From PVC group bacterium (GTDB taxonomy: Bacteria; Omnitrophota; Gorgyraeia; B26-G9), in NCBI GenBank assembly GCA_024231215.1, contig JAAEQR010000206.1, positions 3,112-67,111 of the forward strand: a DNA stretch of 64,000 nt. The letters are read 5' to 3'. Of this stretch, positions 42,609 to 61,089 are shown one piece after another. The notes below the pieces were generated by a model. It worked only from the letters and a program-made list of their open reading frames with translations, was not told the origin of the DNA and made no database searches. The translations under genes were made by a program, and so were the position numbers. The first letter of the stretch is position 1. Each line of letters starts with the position of its first letter.

Positions 42609-42614
42609 TATCTC

Positions 42615-43874: not shown

Positions 43875-44224
43875 TTTGTACCTCTAACGTTAAATTTTTT
43901 TGCTAATTCTCCAGCTATTTTTCTCACTTCTGCTTGTTCTTGGCCAGTAGGTTTTTTCCCCGGATCAAAAGTATTACACGTTTTTTTTGTGGCTTCAACG
44001 GCCTGTCTAAAATCATACATGTTCGGGAATTTATTGTATTTCGAGTCATGGTTTAGCTTTAGCCAATTACAAGCATTATCTAATTTTTCATATGAATATT
44101 TTTCCACATATGGCCAGAGTATTGTATCAGCAAATAATTTATCTGTTCTGGCATTGGGAGAATTAAGAAGGTTTAATTCAACAACTAATTGTTTTATTCT
44201 TTTATCAAATTGTGTTTTGTTCAT
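43871..44224 (-). CDS. hypothetical protein (117 aa)
   Basis: ATGA overlap with the repeat-protein gene. Confidence 0.45.
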   Translation of the reverse strand: MNKTQFDKRIKQLVVELNLLNSPNARTDKLFADTILWPYVEKYSYEKLDNACNWLKLNHDSKYNKFPNMYDFRQAVEATKKTCNTFDPGKKPTGQEQAEVRKIAGELAKKFNVRGTK

Positions 44225-44415
44225 GTAGCTTTCCTTTCTAAACAGTCCAAGAGATAGTTTGCAAGTTCGTGCTGTTCTTCTAATTCTCGCTTGTACCTTT
44301 CCTCCTGTCTCCCATATTTAATAATCCCAGGGAATAAGAAAAGGAATCCATGTAAATTTCGAATCCCATATGGTTTATTGTCGTTGTAAATTATTTTCAA
44401 ATCATTCATTATCAA
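44221..44415 (-). CDS. small hypothetical protein (64 aa)
   Basis: Overlapping start/stop on both sides (operon packing). Confidence 0.35.
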
Positions 44416-45119
44416 TCATCCCATACTGTTTTTTGTTGAAGTTGGTTGCAATCTTTTTTCAACCACTTGCCAGCAGTTAAAAATAGGCTTATATAGTTAG
44501 TATTTTTACGATAGTTTTCAATCCTATCTAAAACATCATCAATCTGTTCTTTTGAATAAGCTTTGTTTAGTTTTTCAAATTCACAATTGGTTATTTTCAA
44601 ATGACGGAATTTTCTATATACGTTATTGCTAGTAACTATCTTACTAGGTATATCATTATCATAGTTATATTCATATTCATATTCATTTTCATAGAAAGTT
44701 TTGTCAAACTTTTCAAAAACTTTATATAAAGTTTTCCTAAACTTTGGATAAGTGTCTAAAAAACAATGCCATAGAGTGGTACGGAAATCATATACGTCTC
44801 TAAGTATTGATTTCTCTATGAGATCTGGTCTCCCAATCCTTTGACCGTTATACCTGTAGAAGTTTTTAACAAACACATAACTACCATCTTTATCATAAAA
44901 AATATTAGGGTGTATACTTAATAGTGTCTTTTTCACTTTATCAGATTTCCAGTTAAGGACAAAGCCTATTTTTTTAAATGATATTTTGTAGATACCAGAC
45001 TCAGTACATTTACTATTTGTTATGAGATAAAAGAAGAGTGTTTTTTGTGCATCAGTGTATTTTAAAAACTTATCTTCATCATCCCAGATTGCTATATATA
45101 CAGGTCTATATCTTGCCAT
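44412..45119 (-). CDS. hypothetical protein (235 aa)
   Basis: Intact ORF with ATGA overlaps. Tyr/Asn-rich. Function unknown. A replication-associated role is possible by position only. Confidence 0.45.
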
Positions 45120-45534
45120 TACATTCCTTTATTGCTTTATGTATTGCCTCTATACAAAAATCATACTTTGTGACAAAAAACATTATTTCGTCTTTGAAAG
45201 ATTTTTTGTCTGCATAAAAATGCAAGTTTTCGCTTATATAAACTAGCTCTCTTGATAAAAATCCGTTGCCTCTCATATCACTACTAAAAATAGATAGGTT
45301 TTCATACAATCCATTGTGTTCGTCTTTGTGGCATTTATCACAAAGTGTTATTATTTGGTAGTTGTAATATTCCCAAGGATACAATTCCTCATAGTAAACA
45401 GTATGGTGGGCATGTAGTTGATCATCTTTAGATTTACACAATCTGCAAGTAAATTCATCTCGCTCCAATATCTCAAGCCGTTTCTTTTGCCATTTAGGAT
45501 CTTTGAAACTATTAAAGTATTCTTTCTTGGTCAT
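45106..45534 (-). CDS. HNH endonuclease
   Basis: CRLC...[11 protein letters not shown]...CDKCHKDEH: HNH motif with paired Cys zinc knuckles. Confidence 0.6.
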
Positions 45535-45562
45535 TTTATTTACCTTTAGCGGTTATCACCCA

Positions 45563-45853
45563 TTATCCGTAATATCCTAATCCTGTGTGTTGTCGAGGGT
45601 TTTTAAATATTTTTTTAATTAATTCTATATTACATTTTTTCCTATGTAACTGAGTTTTACCTTTTTTAGGATGATTTATTACTGTTGAAATAGTTAGTGT
45701 AGACATGTAGACATTTATCCGTACACCATTTTTTTGATAGCTCACCATAAAATTAGGTTTATTTTCAAATGTTTTTTTGTAACCATTTTCAGAAGCAATT
45801 TTGTTAACCGCTGTTTTATTTTCTTTTATTTCGGTTTGGTCTGGTTTGGACAT
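45563..45853 (-). CDS. hypothetical basic protein (96 aa)
   Basis: Intact ORF. Lys-rich. Confidence 0.4.
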   Translation of the reverse strand: MSKPDQTEIKENKTAVNKIASENGYKKTFENKPNFMVSYQKNGVRINVYMSTLTISTVINHPKKGKTQLHRKKCNIELIKKIFKNPRQHTGLGYYG

Positions 45854-45880
45854 TATTAATCCTGTTTATTTGGTATTAAT

Positions 45881-45953
45881 TTCATTCAAATAAAGAAGGG
45901 ACTCAATACAGCCCGAAAGCAAGGGACTAACTTGCTACTGTATCAAGCCCTTC
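45881..45953 (-). terminator. rho-independent terminator on - strand (long hairpin + U-run)
   Basis: On the - strand: GAAGGG ... (inner GCAAGT..CTTGC hairpin) ... CCCTTC followed by TTTATTTGAA. Arms at 45895-45900 and 45948-45953. Confidence 0.45.
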
Positions 45954-46063
45954 ATAATTTTCTTATTCATTGATTTAGTCCTTTTGTAGTTGAGACTATT
46001 TCGGTTTATCTCTATTCCCCTATAATATAACACAATTATAATTAATTTACAATGGTTTTAAAT

Positions 46064-46444
46064 TTAAAAAGGCAAATCATCCATTGTTCCAAAATCCGAA
46101 CGTTTTTTATCTATTTTTGAGGTACTATAAGAAATTTCAGTATTCACAGCAACTTCAAATTCATTTTCGCAGTCCTCACATTCCAATTTACCGGATGAAT
46201 AATCCCAGGAATCGGCAAATTCATAGCCGCAATAAGGGCAAATAATTTCACCTGTAAATTGTGTTTCACCGCCAAACTTTTCAATTCTTTTTTCTACTCT
46301 ATTTTTGTGGCAACTATAACACAATAAACCCTCTATATAGTAACATAAATTTTCTTTTGTTTTACAATCGGCGCAAAAATAGTGTTTCTCGCACCTATCC
46401 AAATGTTCAGGGTCTTTTTTGGCGCATATTTCACATTTAAACAT
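46064..46444 (-). CDS. Cys-rich zinc-ribbon protein (126 aa)
   Basis: Multiple CxxC pairs (CEIC, CADC, CYSC, CPYC, CEDC). Confidence 0.45.
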   Translation of the reverse strand: MFKCEICAKKDPEHLDRCEKHYFCADCKTKENLCYYIEGLLCYSCHKNRVEKRIEKFGGETQFTGEIICPYCGYEFADSWDYSSGKLECEDCENEFEVAVNTEISYSTSKIDKKRSDFGTMDDLPF

Positions 46445-46462
46445 AATTATTGCCTCTCTGTG

Positions 46463-46672
46463 TTAACTAATTATACATTCATTGGCGTACGCAGGTGTTA
46501 TACAAATGCTATCTTTGTTTCCCAACAAATCAATTTTGTTTATTCGGACGCTATCGTCAACGTCAAGTGTAATTGTCAATTGTTTATTTCCAACTTGTAT
46601 GACAATACGTTCTAATGGGTTATTAATATTTTTATCAGAATTTAGCCTTGTTAAAAACATTTGTGATTTCAC
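46463..46672 (-). CDS. small hypothetical protein (69 aa)
   Basis: ATGA overlap with the upstream VRR-NUC gene. Confidence 0.35.
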   Translation of the reverse strand: MKSQMFLTRLNSDKNINNPLERIVIQVGNKQLTITLDVDDSVRINKIDLLGNKDSICITPAYANECIIS

Positions 46673-47151
46673 AATTCAATTCCTTTCTCTTCGCAGAGTT
46701 TTTTAATTTTCTCAGCAACTTCAATATATTCCTCAACTAATTTAATTACCGCATCAGGGTCTTTCATTTTATTCACAGCGACATCCCGCGCCCATAACTT
46801 TTGTTTTCCGTGCAATCGACCTTTTTTTGATTTTAATTCGAGCATGAGATTTAAATTAAATTTTTCACCTAATCTGATAAAACATGGGTTGTCTGGGCAC
46901 CCGGCAAGGCCGTTATTGTATTTGCCATTTCTGCCTCGTGCGCCTCCTGATAGTAATGCACACACTTTCGGGGCGTTTAGCGTTAACCATTTCCACACAC
47001 CATCCGGAATGTGGAAGTTTTTTATTTTTCTAACAGACAACAAATCATCCACAAGCTTCTGTAAATCTGCCTCAGTAATATCAACTTTGCCGATATTATT
47101 TTCACCCTTATAATATCTTCCGCATTGCTTTTTTTTAGATATTGGGTTCAT
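46669..47151 (-). CDS. VRR-NUC domain nuclease
   Basis: PDGVW ... LMLELKSKKGRLHGKQKLW matches the VRR-NUC PD-(D/E)xK core (D...ELK..KG.LS..Q). Confidence 0.5.
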   Translation of the reverse strand: MNPISKKKQCGRYYKGENNIGKVDITEADLQKLVDDLLSVRKIKNFHIPDGVWKWLTLNAPKVCALLSGGARGRNGKYNNGLAGCPDNPCFIRLGEKFNLNLMLELKSKKGRLHGKQKLWARDVAVNKMKDPDAVIKLVEEYIEVAEKIKKLCEEKGIEL

Positions 47152-47505
47152 TTAATTAATCCTTTGGTAATTAGATATGGAGAGCAGCCCAAGTAGTCCG
47201 GTTGCGTAAGCGGACTGACAGTTTATTACTCCCTTGTAGCCGGGCTGGCCTTGTCGAGGGCTAGGCGATTATTTTTTTCATCCTGAACCACTCCCCATTT
47301 TTTCATTTTTGCCTCTTTTTTATTCTTAATGCCTTTCGTGCTTTTGCAATTTCTTGAGCATCGAATTTTTTACTGTTGTAATTATTGCCACAATAATAAT
47401 ATTTTTTTGAATTACCTGACAATAGCGCTGCTGCCATTAGGCCGGCATAATGTTGTATTTTCATAATTTAACACCCTCAATAGTTAATTGTTATGTGTTT
47501 AATTG

Positions 47506-48108
47506 TTAACTCCTATACTTTTCAACAATATTATTTAGCTCATCAATAAATAATTCAATTTCTATTCTAAGCAAACGAATAAAGGCATCATTTCTCTCCC
47601 ACCTTACAATTAAAGGCTTAAAACCTCTACAGTAGCTCACCAAATCCCACCATTGGCGACCGGTAACCAATAGACACCCCTGTACCTGCTGGAAATGTTC
47701 GGACTCCGACCACCCATTTTCGAGCCTGTCGAGGTGAACATGTGGAGCTGCATTTTTCGTTTCAAACCCGCCATGCTCACCGACAAGCCCATCAGGAGAA
47801 CAACCAAAAGTTTTATTTTTGTCGAAGAAGCAAAATCCGACTTGTTCAACTTTGACTTCATTAATAAACTCATACATTTTTCTGGATTCATCTTCACGCT
47901 CGTGCCCAAGCTCCATATTTGCATTTGTGTATCCATTTGCCTTTTCACCGGTAACTATTTCACCAGCCAACTCATACAAGTATTTTTTTCGTTGAGATGA
48001 TCTTTTTCCGGTAGACGTAACAATCTTTTTGAAGTTAGAAGCTGTCGGCTTGCCCAATCTGGCTTGATACCATTCATCACTATTCTGTTCACAATCAATT
48101 ATTATCAT
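47506..48108 (-). CDS. YqaJ-type viral recombinase exonuclease (lambda-exonuclease-like)
   Basis: N-terminus QNSDEWYQARLGKPTASNF matches the YqaJ signature (Q.S.EWL..R.GkiTASe). Confidence 0.6.
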   Translation of the reverse strand: MIIIDCEQNSDEWYQARLGKPTASNFKKIVTSTGKRSSQRKKYLYELAGEIVTGEKANGYTNANMELGHEREDESRKMYEFINEVKVEQVGFCFFDKNKTFGCSPDGLVGEHGGFETKNAAPHVHLDRLENGWSESEHFQQVQGCLLVTGRQWWDLVSYCRGFKPLIVRWERNDAFIRLLRIEIELFIDELNNIVEKYRS

Positions 48109-48892
48109 TGGTTTTCTCCTTTTTTGTCTCCTTTTTTATTTTTTTTATGGTTTCATTGGCATTCAAAGCGATTATTGCAATATTATGCATTTTTTTTGGA
48201 ATTGATTCGATATTTGCTACACCAAGACAATTTAAAAATTTTTCAACATTGGCTTCAGTGTGTGCAATCATATCAAGGATTTGATGTTTTTGCTCGTCAT
48301 CTATATATTCTTCCATCTCACCACTAGACCCGTCATCATCTTGGTCGTGTGTTGCTAACCCGGTTAGTGACAACAATGTATATCGTTGTAGATAGGTATT
48401 TGTTGAACCTATTGCCTGTAAATTGTTTTTCCGCCCTGAGTTATCTGCACCGGCAGAAAGCGAAGTACTTTCGCTGTAGCCCATTGAATGCGTTATGGTG
48501 CATGTTACTGTAATATTGCCGTCTTTCTGGTCTGTTTGCCATGCCGCCGATAGTCCATGTGTAGCTAATGCGCTATTGATTGTATTGGTGACATTACCAA
48601 GGCTTGCATGGGTGTATCCAGTAGCGCTCCCATCTTTATTGTTATATCCAACTTTTTTATCTTTTACAATTTTGGGTGGATCGCTTTTAAAATTTGCCAT
48701 AGCTTGAGTATAAGCTTTTTTAGCTTGCATATCATCCCACTTAGCTTGTAATTCAAGCATTTTTTCCATTTTTCCAAGATCAATATCTTTTGACATGGCC
48801 ATTTGCAATACTGCTATGGGCGAGCCATTGGACTCTATTGCTTCGATTTGTGTTTCTGCCGGAGTCTCTGCTAATTCAAATTTATTCTCCAT
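48095..48892 (-). CDS. putative single-strand annealing protein (ERF/RecT-like) partnered with the exonuclease
   Basis: Adjacent to and overlapping the YqaJ gene (classic exo + SSAP pair). GSTNTYLQRYTL segment. Family not resolved by eye. Confidence 0.4.
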   Translation of the reverse strand: MENKFELAETPAETQIEAIESNGSPIAVLQMAMSKDIDLGKMEKMLELQAKWDDMQAKKAYTQAMANFKSDPPKIVKDKKVGYNNKDGSATGYTHASLGNVTNTINSALATHGLSAAWQTDQKDGNITVTCTITHSMGYSESTSLSAGADNSGRKNNLQAIGSTNTYLQRYTLLSLTGLATHDQDDDGSSGEMEEYIDDEQKHQILDMIAHTEANVEKFLNCLGVANIESIPKKMHNIAIIALNANETIKKIKKETKKEKTNDNN

Positions 48893-49094
48893 GATAATTT
48901 TCCTCTCTATCTGCTTGATTTTCTATTTGGATAGCTTCTTTTATTTCATTCATTAGTTTAATTCCTTTTCGTAAGTTGCTCAAAACATTAAGGTTATCGG
49001 TGGCCATCTTTCTTGGGCAACATCGTCCTATTGCATTTGTAATATCCTCAACTGTTTCACTATTCCAGTTCTTAATCTGTAAGTTCATGGACAT
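48882..49094 (-). CDS. small hypothetical protein (70 aa)
   Basis: Overlapping start/stop with neighbours. Confidence 0.35.
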   Translation of the reverse strand: MSMNLQIKNWNSETVEDITNAIGRCCPRKMATDNLNVLSNLRKGIKLMNEIKEAIQIENQADREENYHGE

Positions 49095-49272
49095 CTCCTA
49101 TGTTTGGTGGTAATTCTTTTATTGGTCTAAAATGTTCCTCGATTACATCGCCTTCACCACATTTACAATAGTATAGCGCGGTTTCTTTGTCTTTTACCTC
49201 TTTGATTAGATATTTAAATAATCCAGGTATGGTAAAACGTACATCAACAATATAATTATTTAATACTATCAT
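49072..49272 (-). CDS. small hypothetical protein (66 aa)
   Basis: SD GGAGGAATAAATG. Confidence 0.4.
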   Translation of the reverse strand: MIVLNNYIVDVRFTIPGLFKYLIKEVKDKETALYYCKCGEGDVIEEHFRPIKELPPNIGDVHELTD

Positions 49273-49432
49273 TTATTCCTCCTCGTCAAGGATTTCATTA
49301 AAATTATCATATATTCTATGTGTTATACCAATGATATCCCCGGAATCAAAATTATGATTGGAAAAATATTTTGTGAGGATGTTGTCATTAATATAAGTGT
49401 ATAGTTTCATTTGTGTGTCATTGCTAAGGCTA

Positions 49433-49684
49433 TCAAATGGTTTCATTTTTGGTTTCCTTTTCTATGGATATTCTAATCTTGCCATTATCATACGTTATTA
49501 AACTATTACTACTTCTATGGTATTCGTCTATGTCGAGATAGTCAAGCGCGTCTTGTTCAGCTATCAAGCTATAAGGAGTACCGTACTTATTGTAATCAAT
49601 CGTCCAAAACCCTAATTTATATAGTTTTTTTATAGCTCTTTTCTTGGCTAATTTTAGCAAATCATCTGGTGTAAGTTTTTTCAT
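49433..49684 (-). CDS. small protein, paralog A (83 aa)
   Basis: Shares KLGFW.IDYNKYGTPYSL ... KIRISIE with the adjacent 91-aa ORF. Confidence 0.45.
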   Translation of the reverse strand: MKKLTPDDLLKLAKKRAIKKLYKLGFWTIDYNKYGTPYSLIAEQDALDYLDIDEYHRSSNSLITYDNGKIRISIEKETKNETI

Positions 49685-49697
49685 ATTGTTTTTTCCT

Positions 49698-49973
49698 TTA
49701 ATTAAGAGCGATTACAATTTGTATTTTATTATTTTTATATATTAGTCGTACAGTGTCTTTGTCTGTTTTTTCTTCACCATTATAAAAAGTATAGTAATCT
49801 ACAAGCTTTTCTTTGTCTTTTATGTTTCTGTGTGCTTGATGGCCGCCAAGAAGGCTGATTCTGGGTGTTTCGCTTTGATAGTATTGATATTTCCAGAAAC
49901 CTATTTTGTTTACTATGGCATCAATGTCATATTTTTCGGCTAATTCACATATTTCTGATAGTGTGTATTTCAT
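49698..49973 (-). CDS. small protein, paralog B (91 aa)
   Basis: KIGFWKYQYYQSETPRISL ... KIQIVIA. Tandem paralog of the 49433-49684 gene. Confidence 0.45.
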   Translation of the reverse strand: MKYTLSEICELAEKYDIDAIVNKIGFWKYQYYQSETPRISLLGGHQAHRNIKDKEKLVDYYTFYNGEEKTDKDTVRLIYKNNKIQIVIALN

Positions 49974-50191
49974 ATTTCCTCCACAATAATATGAGTAGAA
50001 TTATCTGGTGTGTTATACCAGAAAATAACCTTTTTCCCTTTGTTTTTTTGTAGTGCTATAACGGTAAAGCTATGATTCATGTCGACATTAGACAGTAACT
50101 GTATACCTCTAGGTTCTCCAAGTTTTCTGTTTTTGTTGGCTTTTTTAACTGCTTTGTGAATCATTCTTACTTTTTGGGCGTATGATATCAT
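49970..50191 (-). CDS. small hypothetical protein (73 aa)
   Basis: ATGA overlap with the downstream gene. Confidence 0.4.
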   Translation of the reverse strand: MISYAQKVRMIHKAVKKANKNRKLGEPRGIQLLSNVDMNHSFTVIALQKNKGKKVIFWYNTPDNSTHIIVEEI

Positions 50192-50390
50192 GATTATCCT
50201 CCTGAAAAATAGATGGTGTATTGTTCAGTTTTTCCAGTAACAGGTTGATTGCATCGTCCACAACCTCAGTCCGGTATGGTGGTTTTTTGAGATATTTTTT
50301 TTCATAGATTCTTCGGATAATCTCAATTTTTGTTTTCGTAACACGCCATACTCTTACATTTGGTAGATTTTTGCTGTTTTTATATTCCAT
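50145..50390 (-). CDS. small hypothetical protein (81 aa)
   Basis: Intact ORF. Overlaps the downstream ORF out of frame. Confidence 0.35.
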   Translation of the reverse strand: MEYKNSKNLPNVRVWRVTKTKIEIIRRIYEKKYLKKPPYRTEVVDDAINLLLEKLNNTPSIFQEDNHDIIRPKSKNDSQSS

Positions 50391-50468
50391 TAGTTTTCCT
50401 TATGATTCCCCCACCCCAACCAAAACAAAAAGGATTGGTGAGGCGGAGGATATGAATTTATTTAGTGA

Positions 50469-50699
50469 TTATTGCACTCTGCAAGCTGGTGTAAGCTTAT
50501 AGCTGTTGAATCCGTTGAGAAAACTGTTTAATTGATCCCTGTTGTTTTTTATCAAGCCTGCTTTGATGGCTTTGGAAGCTGCCTCCCAACAAGAAAAAAC
50601 TAAAGGGTTATTAAGTTTATATTCCTCTCCCCTGGCGTAACACTTGTTAAGCTTGCGTTGCTGTTGTATTGTTGGCTTGTTTTCGTATAGTGTCATCAT
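50469..50699 (-). CDS. small basic protein (about 76 aa; start at MMTLYE preferred)
   Basis: The conserved leader AAAACAAAAAGGAGAAGAATC precedes ATGATG at 50699. The longer ORF start at 50807 lacks an SD. Confidence 0.4.
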   Translation of the reverse strand: MMTLYENKPTIQQQRKLNKCYARGEEYKLNNPLVFSCWEAASKAIKAGLIKNNRDQLNSFLNGFNSYKLTPACRVQ

Positions 50700-50734
50700 G
50701 ATTCTTCTCCTTTTTGTTTTGTTTAGATTATATT

Positions 50735-51208
50735 TTAGCACCCGCAATAATCGTCTTGCGCTCTGCTCTGTTTTTCTTCTAATGTTTCGCCACCATTGTC
50801 CAGCCAATGTGTGGTGTGGCTACATTCCCAACAAGTGTATGTTGGATGTAGCCGCGCAAATACAATGTCCAATTCAATAGATTCAATTATTAGTATCGTG
50901 TTGCAGTCTTTTTGTGATGGTTTTTTTGTGAAAATATAAGTGGTACAATTTATTCCATCAATATCATATCGTATCCACTTTTCCAGGCAATACCGTTTTT
51001 TTCCATCAATTACATATTCGTATAGCGTTTCATTTTCTGCGGCATTGTGCCGAACCTCTTTAACATTGATTTCTTCTCCTATTTTTTTCACAACATCGGC
51101 AAAAAACAGCTCTTCACCGCTGTTACACCCCATATAGCCAATATTATTTTTAATTTTTGAAAGATATTTTTTTGTTCTTTCGTCTGTTTTTGTGTCATTT
51201 TTCCACAT
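50735..51208 (-). CDS. hypothetical protein (157 aa)
   Basis: Preceded by the conserved leader ...CAAAAACAAAAAAGGAAAACGATCATG. Confidence 0.45.
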   Translation of the reverse strand: MWKNDTKTDERTKKYLSKIKNNIGYMGCNSGEELFFADVVKKIGEEINVKEVRHNAAENETLYEYVIDGKKRYCLEKWIRYDIDGINCTTYIFTKKPSQKDCNTILIIESIELDIVFARLHPTYTCWECSHTTHWLDNGGETLEEKQSRAQDDYCGC

Positions 51209-51263
51209 GATCGTTTTCCTTTTTTGTTTTTGGTTTGTTGTTTTAATCTAACAATGATTTATA

Positions 51264-51626
51264 TTAGATAACATTTTTTTTAGATTGTCTATTTTCTTCT
51301 ATGTCATCTAATAATTGTTCTGTCACAGACGGAATATCATTAAATTCTACGTGGATATTATTATTGATGTAAATTTCTTCCGCTTCTGTCAATTCCATAT
51401 TATATTTTCTATTTTCAGCATTTTCATACTCTTCTAAATATGTTTCCCACCAATCATAGTTTTCTTGGTCTGACACATATATTTGTTCTTCGTCGTCCCA
51501 TACAAATTGTCCGTCTGAGGTGGCGAGAGTACCACCAATTAAGTCATCACTCCATTCCGTGCCTGTCTCAGGATTAATAATTATCAACTCTTCTGCTTTT
51601 CCGGTCTCTTTGATTTTTACTTTCAT
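51264..51626 (-). CDS. acidic hypothetical protein (120 aa)
   Basis: Preceded by the conserved leader CCCAAAACAAAAAGGAGAAGGATTATG. Very acidic (D/E-rich), a feature often seen in DNA-mimic proteins, but unproven here. Confidence 0.45.
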   Translation of the reverse strand: MKVKIKETGKAEELIIINPETGTEWSDDLIGGTLATSDGQFVWDDEEQIYVSDQENYDWWETYLEEYENAENRKYNMELTEAEEIYINNNIHVEFNDIPSVTEQLLDDIEENRQSKKNVI

Positions 51627-51652
51627 AATCCTTCTCCTTTTTGTTTTGGGTA

Positions 51653-51991
51653 TTAAAATCGTGTATTTTCAAGAATGGCTCCACTGAGGTTAGCTCCCCT
51701 GAGGTTAGCTCCACTGAGGTTAGCTCCACTGAGATCGGCTCCACTGAGGTTAGCTCCCCTGAGATCGGCTCTGACGAAATTAACTCTACTGAGATCGGCT
51801 CTACTGAGATCGGTATTAAAAAGCCGCGCGTCACTGAGATTGGCTCCACTGAGATCGACATTACTGAGGTTAGTTCCTGCAAGGTCAGCATCACTAAGGT
51901 TAGTTTTGTGTTGTACCACAAAATCAGCATATGATATGTTTTCATCAGTTTCCGCAATCACATTGTCTGTATTCCAAATTTGATGTTCCAT
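51653..51991 (-). CDS. pentapeptide-repeat protein (16 x A[D/N]LSG)
   Basis: Read directly: [25 protein letters not shown] ... [10 protein letters not shown]. First gene of the - strand block. Preceded by the conserved leader. Confidence 0.6.
51681..51905. repeat. 15-bp tandem repeat array (CTGAGGTTAGCTCCA-type) encoding the pentapeptide repeats
   Basis: Periodic nucleotide repeat visible on both strands. It generates multiple overlapping ghost ORFs in the track. Confidence 0.7.
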
Positions 51992-52027
51992 AATATTACT
52001 CCTTTTTGTTTTGGTTTGTTTTGGTTA

Positions 52028-52036
52028 TGCTATAAT
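52028..52036 (+). promoter_or_regulatory. extended -10 element TGcTATAAT (candidate rightward promoter of the terminase/late block)
   Basis: Read directly. No good -35, as is usual for extended -10 promoters. The AT-palindromic context could also serve the leftward direction. Confidence 0.35.
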
Positions 52037-52050
52037 ATATCGCAACTATC

Positions 52051-52082
52051 ATGCCACACAAATGATGCATTATTGTGGCATA
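52051..52082. promoter_or_regulatory. 32-bp inverted repeat ATGCCACA-n16-TGTGGCAT (operator candidate)
   Basis: Perfect 8-bp arms flanking caaatgatgcattat. It lies between the divergent first genes. Confidence 0.45.
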
Positions 52083-52090
52083 TTTGATAG

Positions 52091-52175
52091 GCAATAATTG
52101 CCTGTGTAAAGAATTCCGACGCCTAAAAATAGACTATGTTATAAATCAATGAGTTAACGTGTAAAGAATTCCGAC
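52091..52175. promoter_or_regulatory. direct repeats GTGTAAAGAATTCCGAC x2 (55-bp spacing) plus GGCAATaATTGCC palindrome
   Basis: Copies at 52104-52120 and 52159-52175 are identical over 17 bp and each contains the palindrome GAATTC. Confidence 0.45.
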
Positions 52176-52366
52176 AACGATTAAGGAAAAGTTTACACCA
52201 TCTTTTAAGTATTTGATTTAAAAGAAAATAAATAAAACTATAGACAAAACACATACATTGAAGTATATTAATATAGAGATGTGTTATTTTTTATGATGTG
52301 AAAAAAATATGGGGAAGGGGTGGAATAATCAACCACCCCTTATTATAATGTAGAGTAGGAGTTTCG

Positions 52367-52636
52367 ATGGGTAAGAGATGGCATGCGTGGGACAAACAGC
52401 CCTTGTTTCAGGTCAAAACGCCTGATGGCCATGAATATAATATACACTCTAATGGCGAAGTAGAGGGGTTTCCTGCCGGTCGAGATATCTGCAATTGTAT
52501 CCCAATGTATCGTTTAGAAATAATTAGGGAGTATGGCCACAATTCATTAGGGTTGGTTAAGTTGTCTCGTTTATTAAAGGAAATATTTAAGCGTTTGCGT
52601 TGGATGATCCGGCGCAGCTTTAATAATAAAGAATAA
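52367..52636 (+). CDS. hypothetical protein (89 aa), first gene of rightward block
   Basis: SD GTAGGAGTTTCGATG. Confidence 0.4.
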   Translation: MGKRWHAWDKQPLFQVKTPDGHEYNIHSNGEVEGFPAGRDICNCIPMYRLEIIREYGHNSLGLVKLSRLLKEIFKRLRWMIRRSFNNKE

Positions 52637-52662
52637 AATACATTATATAAGCTAACAGAAAG

Positions 52663-53244
52663 TTGATTAATGTGGCTACAAGAAAGAAAATATCCTCAAG
52701 AAAACTAACCCAAATGGAGCTTGCGTTCTGCTATGAATATGTAGCAAACAAGTTCAACGGGAAGCAGGCCGCAATAGCCGCTGGATACAGTGTAAAGACA
52801 GCAGAAGTACAAGCATCGGACTTATTAAGTAGACCTAAGCTGAAACTCAAGGTAAAGCAGCTCACAGATAAGTATCTAAAAAAGGTAGAATATACCGGCG
52901 AATCCATTCTAAACGAATTAGCAATATTAGGGTTTTCTGATATGAATGATATGTTAAACGAGGATGAAAATGGTGATTTAACATTGAAATCATTAAAAGA
53001 TATGGGATATAACACACGGTGCATCCAACAATTGGAAATAACTAATACAACGCGATCATTTAAGGACTCCACAGAGACCCAAACAGACCAAAAAATCAAA
53101 TTTAAGCTGTATGATAAGAGAGCAACATTAGAATTAATAGGAAAAAACCTACAGCTATTCACGGATAGAATACACCACACAGGTGAAGTGAACAACACAG
53201 TACAAGTATACATTCCTGATAATGGCCGAAATAACAAGGATTAA
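52663..53244 (+). CDS. terminase small subunit
   Basis: Immediately upstream of and overlapping the large terminase. N-terminal HTH-like segment KLTQMELAFCYEYVANKFNGKQAAIAAGYS, typical of small terminase subunits. Confidence 0.5.
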   Translation: MINVATRKKISSRKLTQMELAFCYEYVANKFNGKQAAIAAGYSVKTAEVQASDLLSRPKLKLKVKQLTDKYLKKVEYTGESILNELAILGFSDMNDMLNEDENGDLTLKSLKDMGYNTRCIQQLEITNTTRSFKDSTETQTDQKIKFKLYDKRATLELIGKNLQLFTDRIHHTGEVNNTVQVYIPDNGRNNKD

Positions 53245-55180
53245 ACCGCAGGCCGGCCCTCAAGAAAAGTTTTTATCATCCAATGCAGATATAGTAATAT
53301 TTGGTGGTGCAGCATACGGCGGAAAGTCATTTGGGTTGTTGCTGGAATCAATTAGATATATACAAGATCCACGATATAATGGAGTAATATTTCGAAGGGA
53401 ATCACCACAAATAACATCCGGTGGAGGATTATGGGATACGGCGGGGCAGATATATCCTCATGTGGGCGGAATAGCGAACGAGGGGAAATTAAAATACACA
53501 TTTCCTACAGGGGCATACAATAAATTCACTCATTTACAATATGAAAAAGATAAGCTTAATCACCAGGGTGCACAATATGTTTTTATAGGATTTGACGAAT
53601 TAACTCATTTTTCAGAAACACAATTTTGGTATCTGCTCACACGTAACCGCCCACCATCAGGATGTAATATCAGGCCATATTGTCGATGTACAACGAATCC
53701 GGAGGCTGATAGTTGGGTAAGAGAGCTAATAATATGGTGGATTGATGAAAACACAGGGTATGCTATACCTGATAGGTCTGGAATTGTACGATATTTTACG
53801 CGAATTGACGAAGAAATCATATGGGTGGATAAGGATTGGACAGATGAAAGCGGAAATAAGGCAAGGTCTATTACATTTATACCTTCATTTTTAGAAGATA
53901 ATCCATTGGGTATAGCTGCTGACCCTATGTATCAGAGCAACTTACAAGCACAAGATAAAGTAACACGTGAACGGCTATTGAAGGGAAATTGGAATATAAC
54001 ATATAAGGGTGGAATGATGAATCCAGGCTGGTTTAAGATCCTAGAAAATTTCCCGCCTATGAAATATGTACGGTATTGGGATAGGGCCGCGACTGAGCCC
54101 AAAGACGAAAATGATGACCCAGATTGGACGGTGGGGGCTAAGTGTGGGATGCATGGAGGGGAGTTATATATAGAGGATATAGTCCGTTTCCGTGATACTC
54201 CAGCCCAAAATGAGGAAAAAATATTAAATTGTGCGGATAATGACGGCTATGATGTGTCTATTGGGTATGAAATAGAACCTGGAAGCGCTGGCGTTGAAGT
54301 CGCCGAACATTATCAAACTAAGATATTGAAAGGTTATACGGTAATATTAGACAGGCCAAAAGGTAATAAAGTGGAGCGGTGTAAGCCCTGGGCGGCACTT
54401 GCGGAACATGCACATGTATACATCAAAAAAGCCGCTTGGAATAGGCAATTTCTTGCTGAAATAGGCAGTTTTCCACTTGAAAAAAAAGACCAAGTAGACG
54501 CGGTGTCCGGTGGATATAAGATGCTGACAAGAGATAAGTATATTTTTCCAGCATTTAAATTGTCGGATACAAAAAAAATAACAATAGAATGGGAACCCAA
54601 GAAAAGTAAGGCCCATATGCACCATTACGGAGCAATGGTACAACTGCCGGACATGAGCCTGTGGATGCTGGAGGTGTTGTATCATGCAATTGATAACAAA
54701 ATGTATGTATATGGGTGCTGGAAAACCAATAATCCGGCTCCTGCGCTGGTTGTGCCTGTGATAATTAGCAGAATGCATCTCAAAGAGTTCATGATTAAGC
54801 GCTTGTTGGTCTCAGATCACATAATGCATGCCATAGCGCCAAAAAAAGCACCGTATTATTTTTACCGCAAGGAATTTATCAAGAAAAAATGTAGGCCGAA
54901 ATTAAGTGAAAGTATATTATACGATGAATCAGGCTCAATTGTGATGGCTACTGAAATGTTTATGAGGCAGCAAATAATATTTAGCCATGAAGCTAAACCA
55001 GCAGCACAGCAGGTGTCGGGCTGGACAATTGACAAGGGGAAGCCGTCTAAGGAGAACAGTGCGTATTGCGAAGGCCTGCTAATGATTATATCAGAGCTGA
55101 AAAGGATGAGAATAATACAGAAAAAGCCACCCAAACCAAGGGATTATAAAATAGTTAGAACAGTTGCAAGAAATTTTTAA
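53222..55180 (+). CDS. terL: terminase large subunit
   Basis: Walker A-like ADIVIFGGAAYGGKSF near the N-terminus. Walker B-like FIGFDELTHF. 652 aa with a C-terminal nuclease-sized domain. Confidence 0.75.
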   Translation: MAEITRIKPQAGPQEKFLSSNADIVIFGGAAYGGKSFGLLLESIRYIQDPRYNGVIFRRESPQITSGGGLWDTAGQIYPHVGGIANEGKLKYTFPTGAYNKFTHLQYEKDKLNHQGAQYVFIGFDELTHFSETQFWYLLTRNRPPSGCNIRPYCRCTTNPEADSWVRELIIWWIDENTGYAIPDRSGIVRYFTRIDEEIIWVDKDWTDESGNKARSITFIPSFLEDNPLGIAADPMYQSNLQAQDKVTRERLLKGNWNITYKGGMMNPGWFKILENFPPMKYVRYWDRAATEPKDENDDPDWTVGAKCGMHGGELYIEDIVRFRDTPAQNEEKILNCADNDGYDVSIGYEIEPGSAGVEVAEHYQTKILKGYTVILDRPKGNKVERCKPWAALAEHAHVYIKKAAWNRQFLAEIGSFPLEKKDQVDAVSGGYKMLTRDKYIFPAFKLSDTKKITIEWEPKKSKAHMHHYGAMVQLPDMSLWMLEVLYHAIDNKMYVYGCWKTNNPAPALVVPVIISRMHLKEFMIKRLLVSDHIMHAIAPKKAPYYFYRKEFIKKKCRPKLSESILYDESGSIVMATEMFMRQQIIFSHEAKPAAQQVSGWTIDKGKPSKENSAYCEGLLMIISELKRMRIIQKKPPKPRDYKIVRTVARNF

Positions 55181-55343: not shown

Positions 55344-55547
55344 ATGTATTTTGTGTATTACGGTGGCTCCGGAGAGGTAAGCGCATTGATAAATTTCGAG
55401 ACAATGTCAGGGGCTACTAATTACATCGAGGGAAAAATAGAGCAGGGACACTATTTGTCCGACTTTGTTGTGATATGTGGAAGAAGAAAAAAACTGAGAA
55501 TGGAGCCAGTTATAATTAAAACGGGAATAGAGATAGTAGATGAATAA
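55344..55547 (+). CDS. small hypothetical protein (67 aa)
   Basis: SD TAAGGAGATGTGACATG. Confidence 0.35.
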   Translation: MYFVYYGGSGEVSALINFETMSGATNYIEGKIEQGHYLSDFVVICGRRKKLRMEPVIIKTGIEIVDE

Positions 55548-55902
55548 ATCACCAGCAATAAAAGTAAAGCCCAATATATGGGATAGCAAAGAGTTTGAGA
55601 AGCCCTACCACGGGGCAAGGAGAAATAGAGGGATGCCTAGCGCGATGGAGCCAATACAGGAATATACAGAGCAGGGCCGCAAGAATTTCGACAAGTGTTT
55701 CAAGCAGGAAGACAAGGTAAACAATTGCGGTAAAGTGAAAAAATGTAAGAAAAATTGCGAATATCGCAGCATGAGAACTGAGAGCGAGTGTGCGTGGTAT
55801 ATTGATATTGACAAGTGCGATACGAAGAAAGTAAAGAAGCCTAAACTACTAAAGGTAGATTACAGGCCGCCACTAACGGGAATGGGAATATATGATAAAT
55901 AA
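55540..55902 (+). CDS. Cys-containing basic protein (120 aa)
   Basis: Intact ORF, ATGA overlap. CGKVKKCKKNCEYRS ... C..C. Confidence 0.4.
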   Translation: MNKSPAIKVKPNIWDSKEFEKPYHGARRNRGMPSAMEPIQEYTEQGRKNFDKCFKQEDKVNNCGKVKKCKKNCEYRSMRTESECAWYIDIDKCDTKKVKKPKLLKVDYRPPLTGMGIYDK

Positions 55903-56269
55903 GAAAGATATAAATGTATTAATCAGAGATCCACTACCAGGAAGATCTTTTCGCTGGCCTATTACATATAAGGAGAAAGAGATTGGAACGATATTATTTA
56001 ATTGTTGGCCCAAAGAGTCGGATTCAAAAATAATTACTGGGGTGAGGAAAGAAGCTAAGATGATGTGTACATTGGAACATATTGAGGTGTTTGAAGAGTA
56101 TAAGCGGCAGGGAGCTGCATACAGGGCTCTTGTGTTGTGGCTTCCCGGCTTTGATCGAGTTGACACACGGGCGAACTCATGGGCAGCCATGAAGCTAATT
56201 GTAAAAGCTGGTTTTCGCACAGGAAATAGTGTGGATTATATATGGGAGAGAGAAAAAAAAGATGATTGA
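55892..56269 (+). CDS. possible GNAT-type acyltransferase (weak)
   Basis: VFEEYKRQGAAYRALVLWL resembles GNAT motif A. Low certainty. Confidence 0.3.
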   Translation: MINKKDINVLIRDPLPGRSFRWPITYKEKEIGTILFNCWPKESDSKIITGVRKEAKMMCTLEHIEVFEEYKRQGAAYRALVLWLPGFDRVDTRANSWAAMKLIVKAGFRTGNSVDYIWEREKKDD

Positions 56270-56501
56270 TGAGCGTATATATAAAAATGCGTATAAGCCC
56301 TATGATATCGTGACCAACGAAATCGGAGACGTGGGAGTTATAACAGAGACCAGTGTGGATGAATAAACCTGTTGGTGGTAGAAAAAATCCCGCATATTTT
56401 TGTGTTCGTGATTCAGAAAATTATTATTCATCCGGCATGGGCTGGACAATACCTGTTGACACAGAAGGTCTCATTGTTGTTACATTAAGAGAGGTGAAGA
56501 A

Positions 56502-56795
56502 GTGAAAAGTAGTACCATAACAATAGTAGAAACCGCTGATTATCCGGAAAGCTATGTGGAATTTGTCGCGTGGGTTACTAAGTGGGTTCGGAAAATACCA
56601 GAGGAGTATTTAAATAAGGCAGAAATATCATTTAACCAAACAGCCTGGGATGGTGTAGCAGTTGAAATATATTACAAAAACATGGAGATTGAAGAAGCAA
56701 ATAGGCTAATAAAGAAGTTTGAAGTAGAGGAAAAAGAGATAGCTGAATATCTTAGGCTACGTGAAAAATACAAGTACCATAGGAATTTAGAGTGA
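56502..56795 (+). CDS. hypothetical protein (97 aa)
   Basis: SD GAGAGGTGAAGAAGTG, with GTG or ATG start uncertain. Overlaps the next gene. Confidence 0.35.
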   Translation: MKSSTITIVETADYPESYVEFVAWVTKWVRKIPEEYLNKAEISFNQTAWDGVAVEIYYKNMEIEEANRLIKKFEVEEKEIAEYLRLREKYKYHRNLE

Positions 56796-57658
56796 AAACA
56801 GCAATAACAACATTAGTAAGCTCAGATAAGTTTCAACATTATCTACCACTATATATATATGTAGTACGCAAGGAGTATCCTGAGTATTTTCTAAAGACAT
56901 TTATCACGGGAAAAATTAATCCATTAGTTGCCAAGGCGCTTGATTATCTAAGGAGCCAGGGGGTGCGGTTTGATGAGCCCATAGAGGTATTTAAGGATAT
57001 TAAGCTAATTGATTCCACTGCTAACAGCTTAAGGTTCTTGACAAGTGAGAGATATTTTGAGGGCATGGATAATGTAATATATACCGATGCTGATTTGTTA
57101 TTGTTTCGAAATAGCCCCACATTAGAACAATGGCATATCAAAAGAATGAAAAAAATGAAAACATGTTATGCAGGACATCACGGGCCTTGGAGGAAAAAGT
57201 ATAGGCCGGAAATATCTAAGGCAGGTTGGAGGGGCAATTTTGAGCGGGTTTCAGCAGGATTTGTCATGGTTACACAGCAATGGTTTAAGAAGACGAGAAA
57301 AGCCAGGAAATCCTTTTTGAATAAAGCTAAGAAGGGTAAATTAGGAGGGTTCAGGGAATTTGATGAGGTTATGTTGGGGTGCATTGTGAAAAGCTCTGGC
57401 CTTCCTATGCCTCCATTTAGGTTTTGTAAGAAGCAACGGGGAATCCATCTGGGAGATTTTAAAAAGCAGATGAGTCGTAGATTTACAAGAAAAAAGAAAA
57501 TGAAAAAATGTGTAGCACCTCAACCAGTATTACAATTTCAGGCCTTGGAAAAGGACCCTATTTGGGTTGGGGTGCTAAGGATAATGGAAAAATGCCCATA
57601 TCTAATGGAAATAATAGATAATGCAAGAAAACGTTTAAGGCGGAGGTTGAAGTATTGA
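56792..57658 (+). CDS. putative GT-A-like glycosyltransferase/nucleotide-sugar transferase (288 aa)
   Basis: VIYTDADLLLF DXD-like motif. Very basic C-terminal tail. Weak. Confidence 0.3.
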   Translation: MKTAITTLVSSDKFQHYLPLYIYVVRKEYPEYFLKTFITGKINPLVAKALDYLRSQGVRFDEPIEVFKDIKLIDSTANSLRFLTSERYFEGMDNVIYTDADLLLFRNSPTLEQWHIKRMKKMKTCYAGHHGPWRKKYRPEISKAGWRGNFERVSAGFVMVTQQWFKKTRKARKSFLNKAKKGKLGGFREFDEVMLGCIVKSSGLPMPPFRFCKKQRGIHLGDFKKQMSRRFTRKKKMKKCVAPQPVLQFQALEKDPIWVGVLRIMEKCPYLMEIIDNARKRLRRRLKY

Positions 57659-57984
57659 TGTTTAGTTTCATGAGCAAAAAAAAGGCTAAAGAAGAGATAA
57701 AATCTCTGGTGAAAGACTGGGGTGACATCAGAGGTAAAGAGATAAAAAAATGGTTGAAAGACGAGCTTGAACTTTTATTTGGGTGGGGTGAAAGTGGCGA
57801 CTATTACGATTGGGACAACGACGGTGATTCAAAAATAAAAAGAATAATGTTTAATATATTTGATGAAAAGTTGGAAAAGGCACTTAAAAAAGCTGTTGAA
57901 AAACATATTAACGGTGAAGAGTTTGTTGATAAAATTATTGAACGTATTAACAGAAAGCAGTTGGGAAGGAAGAGATGGGAATAA
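57655..57984 (+). CDS. hypothetical protein (109 aa)
   Basis: ATGA overlap. K/E-rich. Confidence 0.4.
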   Translation: MMFSFMSKKKAKEEIKSLVKDWGDIRGKEIKKWLKDELELLFGWGESGDYYDWDNDGDSKIKRIMFNIFDEKLEKALKKAVEKHINGEEFVDKIIERINRKQLGRKRWE

Positions 57985-58256
57985 AAAGCGAAACTGAATG
58001 CCCTAAGTGTAGGGCAACGTATCATAACATAAAGCATATAAGAAAAGCAAACAAAGTAATGATTGTATGTTCCGATTGTGCCTATGAGTGGAGTGTATCT
58101 GCGCTGGACAAAAAAGTTATAACAGAGGAAGCGGCTATAAAAATAATAAGCAAAAGCGATTTAGCAGAAATGAAAGCAATTGTGTCGGAAAATATGGTGG
58201 AAAAAATTGTAGATGTAATGCTGAATAAGATTATCGGTTTGGTAGACGACGAATGA
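57975..58256 (+). CDS. small zinc-ribbon protein (93 aa)
   Basis: CPKC...(19 aa)...CSDC motif. Confidence 0.4.
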   Translation: MGIKSETECPKCRATYHNIKHIRKANKVMIVCSDCAYEWSVSALDKKVITEEAAIKIISKSDLAEMKAIVSENMVEKIVDVMLNKIIGLVDDE

Positions 58257-58639
58257 TACAACAAAAACCAAAAACAGCCAAGGGGTACTACTACTATCAT
58301 AGATTGATGTGGAGTAGGCTGGTTAAGGAGATGGAAAAGGGGAAAGTTCTTGACACTGGCTTAAAATACAGTGTATGGAATAGTTTGTTTGATTTTGATG
58401 GCGAGGAGTGCAATCACTGCTTTGCTTGCATGTGGAAAGATGATGATGTGACGGTTCGGGAGTATGTGTACTATATCGCCGAAGATGGCGATTGTGAAGA
58501 TGAGTGTTTGTTGCATTATACGCCAGAAGATGGAAAGTGCTTAGGTGGATTATACGAAGCAGCAACCGGAGTAAGTCAATACAGAATAGAAGCGGCTAAG
58601 GAAATACGTGATTTACCTATGAAGGATAAGTGGAAATGA
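58253..58639 (+). CDS. Cys-rich hypothetical protein (128 aa)
   Basis: CNHCFAC...CEDEC. ATGA overlap. Confidence 0.4.
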   Translation: MIQQKPKTAKGYYYYHRLMWSRLVKEMEKGKVLDTGLKYSVWNSLFDFDGEECNHCFACMWKDDDVTVREYVYYIAEDGDCEDECLLHYTPEDGKCLGGLYEAATGVSQYRIEAAKEIRDLPMKDKWK

Positions 58640-59367
58640 AATTCCAATTAATAATAAGAGGACGCAACTGCACAAAGTACGTTAAAAAATGTCTTGATTC
58701 GGTGTTAGCACAGACACATAAGGATTGGAAAGCAACTGTATGCCTCGATGCTCCTACGGATAATAGTTATGAAAAAGCTATAAAATATACGAAGGATAAA
58801 AGAATATCTGTATATCGCAACAAAAAACGGCTTGGTGTAGCACACAACATGGTAGAGACTATAATGTTAGCAGCACCTGACGACACCGATATATTAGCTA
58901 TAGTAGACGCGGACGATGAAATACCAAAAAATGCTTTACATATGGTAAATAAAGAATATGAAAAGAACCCTCTATTGAGATTGACGTATGGCTCTTTCTG
59001 GCGGTTGGACAAGAAGAGACGTACGAAGACGAGTAGAAGATATAAGAGCAATGTTAGTGTTAGAAAACAGGATTGGCATGGGAGCCATTTAAAGACGTTT
59101 CGCTATGATCTATACAAACGTATTCCACACAGGTATTTTAAACATGACAACAACAATAAGTGGTTTATGGCGGCGTCGGATTTGGCTCTCATGTTTCCTC
59201 TGTTTGATTTGTTAGGTGTTGATCGGTATAAAACACACACGAAATACGTAAAAGAAATAACGTATAAATGGAATAGAACATCGGATAAAACGCGAGGGCA
59301 TGAACAATACAGGAACAAGCAATTGATTAAGAAAAAGAAACCATTGAAGAGGTTGGAGCATGTGTAG
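58630..59367 (+). CDS. family-2-like glycosyltransferase (GT-A)
   Basis: N-terminal LIIRGRN...CLDSVLAQTHKDWKATVCLDAPTDNS ... AHNM resembles the GT2 core (S..Q.....e.i.vDD.S.D ... N.G). Confidence 0.5.
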   Translation: MEMKFQLIIRGRNCTKYVKKCLDSVLAQTHKDWKATVCLDAPTDNSYEKAIKYTKDKRISVYRNKKRLGVAHNMVETIMLAAPDDTDILAIVDADDEIPKNALHMVNKEYEKNPLLRLTYGSFWRLDKKRRTKTSRRYKSNVSVRKQDWHGSHLKTFRYDLYKRIPHRYFKHDNNNKWFMAASDLALMFPLFDLLGVDRYKTHTKYVKEITYKWNRTSDKTRGHEQYRNKQLIKKKKPLKRLEHV

Positions 59368-59662
59368 CAGTTGCGATCAAAAAGAAAAGTGTGACAAGAA
59401 AAATAAGACAGAACTACCGAACAAATACATTAAGGATGTTGTGGGTGTGTTTGCCGATTGGCTGAAAAAGGAAGCGCCCAATATGATTAAGAAAGGTGAG
59501 CTGAATAGGAGATGTTATTCTATCAATAGAAGCTTTAAAACAAAAAGGCAGGCCATGTTTTACAATCCACTGAAAAGAGATGCAGAAAAATTTAAAGGCG
59601 TGTCAGTGCATATGCTAGTGGAATTTGATTTTGAAAAGATTCCAAAGATGGAGGATGAGTGA
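59360..59662 (+). CDS. small Cys-containing protein (100 aa)
   Basis: MCSSCDQKEKCDKK N-terminus. Overlaps neighbours. Confidence 0.4.
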   Translation: MCSSCDQKEKCDKKNKTELPNKYIKDVVGVFADWLKKEAPNMIKKGELNRRCYSINRSFKTKRQAMFYNPLKRDAEKFKGVSVHMLVEFDFEKIPKMEDE

Positions 59663-60045
59663 GTACAATATTATTTTCAGGGAGATTTGACAGGCCGCAT
59701 ATAGGGCATATGATTACTATTGGCAGGTTGGGACAGCAATATGATAAGGTAATTATTGTGGTGTTGGATTACCCAGAGCAGAAGTATCCAATAGATGAGC
59801 GGGTAAATACTTTGCGTAATGCTCTGTACCTAATGAGAATGAGAGGATCATATCAAATTGTGGTCTCAAAACACCATTTTGGTGAAATAGAGACAAAACA
59901 ATTAAAAGAAGAAATCCCCTGGTTTGATGTGTATGGCAGTGGCAATAGAGAGGTTTTGGAGAATATGAAACAAAATATATATCCAACACAAAGAGTAGAA
60001 CACATACCCCGATACCCCGGATATTCAGCGAGTGAGGAAGGGTGA
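59659..60045 (+). CDS. cytidylyltransferase-family nucleotidyltransferase (TagD/LicC-like, HxGH motif)
   Basis: ILFSGRFDRPHIGHM matches the (T/H)xGH signature of the cytidylyltransferase superfamily (GtFDllHaGH). 128 aa. Confidence 0.55.
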   Translation: MSTILFSGRFDRPHIGHMITIGRLGQQYDKVIIVVLDYPEQKYPIDERVNTLRNALYLMRMRGSYQIVVSKHHFGEIETKQLKEEIPWFDVYGSGNREVLENMKQNIYPTQRVEHIPRYPGYSASEEG

Positions 60046-60821: not shown

Positions 60822-60991
60822 AAGATGATATGAAAAAAACTACAGGGGTGTGTGATTCGTGTGGAGACAAGGAGTGCATAGAATGTGGTAGTAAATTACA
60901 CATAATAGAAATAAGTTTTTATAATGACGAAGAAGACAACGCCTGTTTGTGTAGAAGATGTTTAAGGAGTGCTTTGGAGATGTTGAAATGA
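60818..60991 (+). CDS. small Cys-rich protein (57 aa), paralog of the 61097-61297 gene; not in ORF track
   Basis: CDSCGDKECIECG...CLCRRCLRSALEMLK, compare ...CSICI...WICKDCLKKALEALK. Frame and stop verified by hand. Confidence 0.35.
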   Translation: MKDDMKKTTGVCDSCGDKECIECGSKLHIIEISFYNDEEDNACLCRRCLRSALEMLK

Positions 60992-61089
60992 AAATAACGT
61001 TCTGCGGAAATAATAGAAAATGGGGTGGTGTGGCGATCAAAGATATTTATGATTTCTTGTATTGTCAAGATTGTTTGAAAATTTTATAA
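60988..61089 (+). pseudogene. truncated duplicate of the N-terminus of the downstream glycosyltransferase (33 codons)
   Basis: MKITFCGNNRKWGGVAIKD..., compare MKITFFGNNKKWGGLANNG at 61294. The nucleotide similarity is visible directly. Confidence 0.5.

Follow-up and report, generated by a model that had tools for sequence, protein, structure and literature searches.

A short, repeat-only pentapeptide-repeat protein beside a strongly acidic neighbour at the head of a phage replication and recombination block

Introduction

MfpA, EfsQnr, QnrB1, AhQnr, AlbG, and PENT are pentapeptide-repeat proteins (PRPs) of about eight coils that form head-to-head dimers via a C-terminal α-helix (PMC8145042, PMC10886550). 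Every structurally characterised gyrase-interacting PRP packs about eight coils into 180-220 aa, and the MfpA dimer is held to be necessary for DNA mimicry (PMC8145042, PMC10886550). Viruses hold about 1.4% of the PRP sequences in Pfam (PMC8145042).

Several of the viral PRP genes lie in early operons. In phages L and ST64T, the early left operon includes the PRP gene orf232, within which the two phages differ by a 15-bp repeat indel (PMC8022706). Salmonella phage vB_SosS_Oslo encodes a 194-aa PRP, gp46, in an early-left operon ordered N/sieB, PRP, and cIII-kil-arf-erf-abc2. In Listeria phage LP-HM00113468, the PRP gene follows those of a Cro-like repressor and a ‘host nuclease inhibitor’ and precedes a methyltransferase gene, with Gam-like and Sak4 genes further along. 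The virulent Listeria phage CKA15 carries a PRP-like gene among its terminal-repeat genes, which as a group reach peak expression at 5 min (PMC12282133). Finally, gp60 of Vibrio phage 24 (KJ572844, 12900-13322, 140 aa) has an architecture like that of Oslo gp46, including the C-terminal domain. According to a preprint, deletion of its gene, 24_60, renders phage 24 far more sensitive to Sucellos, a RexAB-like abortive-infection system, and the mutations of Sucellos escapers map to the same gene (bioRxiv 10.1101/2024.07.02.601686).

The locus described here encodes a PRP of 112 aa on the minus strand (51653..51991) of a 64,000-nucleotide stretch of DNA, which was analysed as a whole and is referred to below as the window. 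A first-pass annotation, made from the sequence, had proposed this protein as a DNA mimic of the Qnr/MfpA type that would bind gyrase. The gene, its surroundings, and its predicted product are compared below with the phage and gyrase-interacting PRPs.

Genomic Context

The window is a phage genome, with the terminase genes TerS (52663-53244) and TerL (53222-55180) and a P22-like portal gene (8880-10934). Proteins encoded next to the PRP gene match GenBank entries at 100% identity, from a MAG contig with the label ‘PVC group bacterium’ (locus tags GY853_14055 and GY853_14075); since the content is that of a phage throughout, this host label comes from binning alone. A megablast search against GenBank phages returned nothing, and the scans of IMG/VR for relatives by gene order yielded no loci with TerL and one distant locus with TerS. 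The closest match to TerL is 44% identical and belongs to Methanoculleus viruses. The TerL ORF (plus strand) encodes 652 aa, of which approximately residues 1-443 alone align with other large terminases, and the C-terminal portion of about 200 aa is an extension without explanation.

Many sugar- or polysaccharide-type enzymes are encoded on the plus strand downstream of TerL (55540-64000) and upstream of the P22-like portal (1-8310). They include a GT2, two methyltransferases (one of the FkbM type), a small kinase-like protein, sulfotransferase-like and GT1-like proteins, LicD, and an NAD epimerase/dehydratase (E 2e-53). Should the ends of the window be contiguous in the genome, the terminase and portal genes would flank this set, an arrangement unusual for a phage in both position and content.

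The leftward block on the minus strand (35997-51991) carries the genes for an ERF single-strand annealing protein (48095-48892; Pfam ERF, E 7e-18), a YqaJ-like exonuclease (47506-48108; Pfam YqaJ, E 2e-20), an HNH endonuclease (45106-45534), a DnaD-like replisome organiser, or loader (44412-45119), and NinB (41174-41605), the last three recognised through PHROGs matches. Because of these genes, it is read as a replication and recombination block. At its promoter-proximal end, the block opens with the PRP gene. Between this gene and the first ORF on the plus strand, towards the packaging genes, lies a 375-nt non-coding gap, and the PRP stop codon is 26 nt from the next gene of the block. By position, the first-pass annotation was right to place the PRP gene at the start of the early block, as this is the first minus-strand gene past the non-coding gap. 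Judging by gene order alone, transcription of the PRP gene would begin early and would include the acidic gene downstream.

The same block also contains, as had been reported, the gene of a tetrapeptide-repeat protein (42615-43874, minus strand). In this ORF of 419 aa, the tetrapeptide (D/A)NI(R/G/W) recurs about 30 times, reflecting a 12-nt DNA repeat of 30.4 copies with 89% matches (43313-43677), and a DUF6745 domain follows the repeats (E 1.5e-17).

The Pentapeptide Array and Its Gene

The PRP ORF consists of 112 codons and a stop (51653..51991, minus strand), preceded by the Shine-Dalgarno sequence AAAGGAG (51999..52005, minus strand) at a spacing of 7 nt from the ATG. Residues 30-109 form 16 consecutive in-register pentapeptides, in the register with L or F at the central position. 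The broad PRP pattern accommodates every one of the 16, nine fit A[DN]Lxx, and four are exact A[DN]LSG units; the 16 tandem A(D/N)LSG pentapeptides announced in the first-pass annotation are therefore real as in-register units, with the exact motif in four of them. When the protein sequence was shuffled 100,000 times, no run of this length arose, and the longest was 7. The Pfam Pentapeptide model (PF00805) is matched at 126.6 bits (cut-off 20.2; E 2.2e-37), and this match, together with a predicted β-helix of about 4.25 turns described below, bears out the designation as a classic pentapeptide-repeat protein. A six-frame comparison across the window found a run of at least seven pentapeptides in no other ORF. 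Three ORFs that overlap the gene (51574-51957 on the minus strand, 51641-51934 and 51675-51983 on the plus strand) are low-complexity shadows of the repeat. The product is cytoplasmic, with an overall pI of 4.5.

At the DNA level, Tandem Repeats Finder detected a tandem repeat over the last nine or so pentapeptides (51677..51813, minus strand), with periods of 15, 30, and 60 nt and 77-87% matches, which indicates recent intragenic expansion of part of the array. The number of repeats is probably labile in evolution through slippage of the 15-nt units.

No close orthologue was found among 5.8 billion clusters, where the best matches are 58-62% identical and repeat-driven; conservation is therefore unusable as a guide for this protein. 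Its exact sequence is also not present in a collection of 15 billion proteins, whereas those of its neighbours are, and the deposited annotation may have missed the gene or assigned it another start.

The Upstream Non-Coding Region

A repeat search picked out two kinds of repeated sequence in the gap that divides the PRP gene from the packaging genes. The first is a near-perfect palindrome, ATGCCACACAAATG/CATTATTGTGGCAT (52051..52081), with 14-nt arms that are 86% complementary, located 60-90 nt 5' of the PRP start codon. It may serve as an operator or as a hairpin in the 5' leader; as RNA, its fold is not significant (z = -1.0). The second is the 17-mer GTCGGAATTCTTTACAC, present on the minus strand in two exact copies (52104-52120 and 52159-52175) that are 55 nt apart, each with a TTTACA hexamer resembling a -35 element; the palindrome lies between these copies and the ribosome-binding site. 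With up to 3 mismatches allowed, the 17-mer occurs in the window at just these two places, against 0.12 expected. The pair is a candidate for tandem promoters or regulator sites of the leftward operon, and the 17-mers and the palindrome in this divergent region are probably promoter and operator elements.

A scan for sigma-70 sites showed no enrichment (10 sites against 9.5 expected) and left the 17-mer pair as the only conspicuous feature; one sigma-70-like site begins at 52165. Searches upstream of the PRP gene for known RNA families, and at 50400-52800 for terminator-like sites, found none. A GC-rich hairpin (GGGGTGG-N9-CCACCCC, 52318-52340) followed by a T-rich run on the minus strand has the appearance of a terminator. 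There is no minus-strand gene upstream of it, and it directly precedes a small plus-strand ORF (52367-52636).

Relationship to Early-Operon Phage Proteins

PRP-like sequences were detected by tblastn in 474 of 50,697 GenBank phage records. Against Oslo gp46, BLASTP aligned residues 2-112 of the window protein at 47% identity, pairing its EHQIW with EHKVW and its LENTRF with LPDLTF. The latter pair are instances of an L-x-(D/N)-x-x-F cap that closes the repeats, and phage 24 gp60 also has LPDLTF. Nevertheless, the 47% identity to early-operon PRPs is largely repeat-driven.

The resemblance to this set of phage proteins covers both product and gene. Like orf232 of phages L and ST64T, ST104 ORF19, Oslo gp46, and phage 24 gp60, the window PRP is small and cytoplasmic. 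It has in common with early-operon phage PRPs the consensus A(N/D)L(S/R)G repeats and the end cap, perhaps also an H-x-x-W just N-terminal to the repeats, as well as placement in early or accessory gene strings beside recombination and anti-nuclease genes and a probable instability of repeat number. The differences lie at the two ends. Among the 120 best database matches, 42 have an N-terminal (I/L)(I/L)xxHxxW motif and 49 a C-terminal GC...W domain. Of the N-terminal motif, the first half is missing from the window protein, which has just the five residues EHQIW, in a region with pLDDT below 50; it also lacks the C-terminal domain of about 75-80 aa (GCQ..T.EEW...), its stop codon following directly after the cap. 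Its repeats outnumber those of phage 24 gp60. Judged on its sequence, it is best described as a repeat-only relative of the early-operon phage PRPs minus their C-terminal domain. In length, it is at the short extreme of viral PRPs: the top 77 viral PRP ORFs in IMG/VR have a median of 252 aa, and 4 of them alone are of 130 aa or fewer.

Such a short protein might be a decaying or neutral passenger, the truncated remnant of a longer early-operon PRP whose repeats have been growing by slippage. This would suit its length relative to the viral median, the loss of a C-terminal domain seen in gp60 and in the 49 matches, the failure to find orthologues, and the near-identity of the 15-nt DNA repeats. 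We nonetheless regard decay as unlikely. The ORF is intact, has a strong ribosome-binding site, and occupies the most promoter-proximal place; the predicted helix is of very high confidence and closes with a proper cap motif. In addition, no remnant of a C-terminal domain is found 3' of the gene, as the next gene begins 26 nt on, and complete short repeat-only PRPs occur in other viral contigs, one example (L037) being of 126 aa.

Predicted Fold and Surface Charge

An AlphaFold2 model built on an alignment of 41 sequences divides the protein in two. Residues 1-27 (51911-51991, minus strand) form an acidic tail that is predicted to be disordered (pLDDT below 50). Residues 28-112 (51656-51910, minus strand) have pLDDT above 94, a β bridge at each fifth residue, and no helices. 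These 85 ordered residues correspond to about 17 pentapeptides in an uninterrupted right-handed quadrilateral β-helix of about 4.25 coils, without loop insertions or a C-terminal helix, and the chain ends 3 residues past the last unit. The first-pass annotation had anticipated a right-handed quadrilateral β-helix and had named a prediction of fewer than two turns as grounds for rejecting its proposal; the fold came out as expected, with about 4.25 turns. By this model, the protein is a bona fide quadrilateral β-helix.

Foldseek comparison of the model with the PDB returned PRPs exclusively. The top match was NP275 of Nostoc, with a TM-score of 0.73 and an rmsd of 0.7 Å over 83 residues; MfpA followed with a TMq of 0.56, and QnrB1 and AlbG were weaker. 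By sequence, the closest matches in the PDB are HetL/All3740 and NP275. The latter (Nostoc punctiforme; PDB 2J8I) is 46% identical and resembles the window protein in its similar size, its uninterrupted coils, about four in number, and its missing dimerisation helix. In contrast, NP275, Alr5209, and Rfr23 are cellular cyanobacterial proteins, and the acidic disordered tail is found on the window protein only.

The charge distribution was derived from the sequence. The β-helix has 9 D/E and 8 K/R, a net charge of -1, and its four faces, counted over the residues that point outward, carry -1, +1, 0, and -3. The disordered tail, at net -6, accounts for six of the seven net negative charges of the protein.

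Comparison with Gyrase-Interacting Proteins

The proposal that this is a Qnr/MfpA-type protein, whose β-helix would mimic DNA, bind the host gyrase, and alter host DNA topology early in infection, draws on a real likeness: the window protein has the same quadrilateral right-handed β-helix built from pentapeptide repeats as MfpA, QnrB1, EfsQnr, AlbG, and McbG, and Foldseek assigns a probability of 1.0 to the fold it has in common with MfpA and QnrB1. The pI of 4.5 also agrees with such a role, and small phage inhibitors of gyrase, Igy and Gip, do exist (PMC10886550).

The family models, however, did not recognise it. In NCBIfam, it scored 34.1 bits for Qnr (cut-off 240), 35.9 bits for MfpA (cut-off 360), and 23-36 bits for QnrA/B/C/D/E/S/VC and SmQnr (cut-offs 425-500), so that its scores of 23-36 bits lie ten-fold under the curated Qnr/MfpA thresholds of 240-500. 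Its predicted structure differs as well. It is about half as long as MfpA, QnrB1, EfsQnr, AlbG, and McbG, with about 4.25 coils in 112 aa compared with about 8 coils in 180-220 aa, and by sequence its helix is near-neutral (net -1). The loop insertions of Qnr and AlbG are missing, as is the C-terminal dimerisation helix in the AlphaFold2 model, and the protein would therefore not form a head-to-head dimer of that type. The first-pass assignment to the gyrase-binding DNA mimics of Qnr/MfpA type thus failed on the curated models, the halved number of coils, and the missing C-terminal helix, and the near-neutral charge of the helix, taken from the sequence, also speaks against it. Homology to Qnr/MfpA in the family sense is not supported, and we consider gyrase mimicry of this kind very unlikely.

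The best NCBIfam scores were obtained with the cyanobacterial families Alr5209 (77 bits; cut-off 125) and HetL (65 bits; cut-off 260), both below threshold. HetL of cyanobacteria shields a protein from an inhibitor and serves as an example of an immunity-type PRP. A comparable immunity function, or modulation of the recombination and replication proteins of the phage or of other host processes, would be in keeping with a sequence that is nearer to these cyanobacterial PRPs than to Qnr/MfpA and with a gene that is co-operonic with those of ERF, the exonuclease, and NinB. On the other hand, neither of the two cut-offs is reached, the similarity to cyanobacterial PRPs is one of consensus-like repeats, and a partner is not identifiable by sequence. 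A role as such a modulator or immunity protein therefore appears unlikely.

The Acidic Neighbour and Anti-Restriction

The next gene (51264..51626, minus strand) encodes a protein of 120 aa with 31 D/E and 9 K/R, a net charge of -22, and a pI of 4.05, in agreement with its earlier description as strongly acidic. Its family is marked by the motifs MKVKIKETG...QETYDWW. A word-indexed search placed 51 clusters in this family, and an exhaustive search at E <= 1e-3 gave 969 representative clusters, a figure counted at 50% identity. Members occur in genomes of Paenibacillus, Pseudodesulfovibrio, Desulfatitalea, and Erysipelotrichaceae. In one phage contig (L085), a member and RadC share an operon that diverges from the small terminase gene. 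The neighbour matched no Pfam or PHROG family, and longer members of its family are without Pfam domains. Its AlphaFold2 model (pLDDT 92.7) shows a small sheet followed by three helices, for which no significant fold match was found in PDB and BFVD. On these grounds, it is a candidate for a new family of acidic decoys or DNA mimics, and it may be the more novel item of the two.

The possibility that the two genes form a conserved pair was also considered and was rejected, given that a convincing PRP was found nearby in none of 12 other loci with an acidic homologue. The pairing seen here is therefore not a conserved module.

The charge of this neighbour bears on a further reading of the PRP, namely as an Ocr/ArdA-type DNA mimic acting against Type I restriction-modification or BREX-like systems. 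As with Ocr and ArdA, the PRP gene is a small, promoter-proximal phage gene, it is first in its operon and adjoins the gene of a very acidic protein, and the literature has considered DNA mimicry for PRPs (PMC7261183, PMC2731889). Unlike those mimics, the PRP has a folded body that is nearly uncharged (9 D/E against 8 K/R). Ocr-like size and charge belong to the acidic neighbour, which at net -22 is the better candidate for charge mimicry, and neither protein has fold similarity to known mimics. The standard coil rise puts the PRP helix at about 20 Å, far below the DNA footprint of a Type I enzyme. PADLOC defence models gave no matches for the PRP or its neighbours. Moreover, McbG and QnrB, which are bona fide DNA-mimic PRPs, did not relieve BREX (PMC7261183), so that DNA mimicry by a PRP need not in itself imply anti-restriction activity. 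Anti-restriction through DNA mimicry by the PRP is accordingly judged highly improbable.

Proposed Function

A small protein that counters host defence or binds a host protein is a likelier identity for the PRP than a gyrase DNA mimic in the style of Qnr/MfpA. The reading that we tentatively favour, at a little under an even chance, is that of an early-expressed decoy or inhibitor that binds a host protein, as distinct from a Qnr/MfpA-type mimic of gyrase-bound DNA. The PRP gene would be transcribed early, with the acidic gene, at the onset of infection. Its product, a rigid rod offering a surface for protein binding, would then serve as decoy or inhibitor for a host factor encountered as infection starts. 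The likeliest target would be a sensor of defence or abortive infection, or a DNA-processing enzyme. These are preferred to gyrase because placement beside anti-nuclease and recombination genes recurs among phage PRPs and because of the precedent in phage 24.

Both grounds carry limited weight. PRPs have many unrelated roles, and gene placement is for this reason weak evidence of function. An anti-defence role would have, by analogy, a weak precedent in 24_60 of phage 24, since the C-terminal domain of gp60, which is missing from the window protein, could be the active part.

Conclusions

The PRP gene is an ordinary kind of phage accessory gene, unusually short, and PRPs of phage early operons were already known. 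It should not be annotated as a Qnr-type quinolone-resistance determinant or as a gyrase inhibitor on the basis of fold alone.

A more far-reaching reading, which we hold to be quite improbable, joins the two genes into an early anti-defence cassette made up of a minimal PRP devoid of the C-terminal domain and the founding member of a new class of mimics or decoys. If this were true, a bare β-helix with an acidic tail would be enough to act against a host sensor or nuclease, such as a RexAB-like abortive-infection system, and the acidic neighbour would be the first characterised member of a widespread class of DNA mimics or decoys.

Phage PRP genes are common and recur in early operons, and one preprint on escape from a RexAB-like system offers the single lead to their function. 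Within this group, a PRP of 112 aa that consists of repeats only would be a handy minimal test case for whether activity resides in the β-helix alone.
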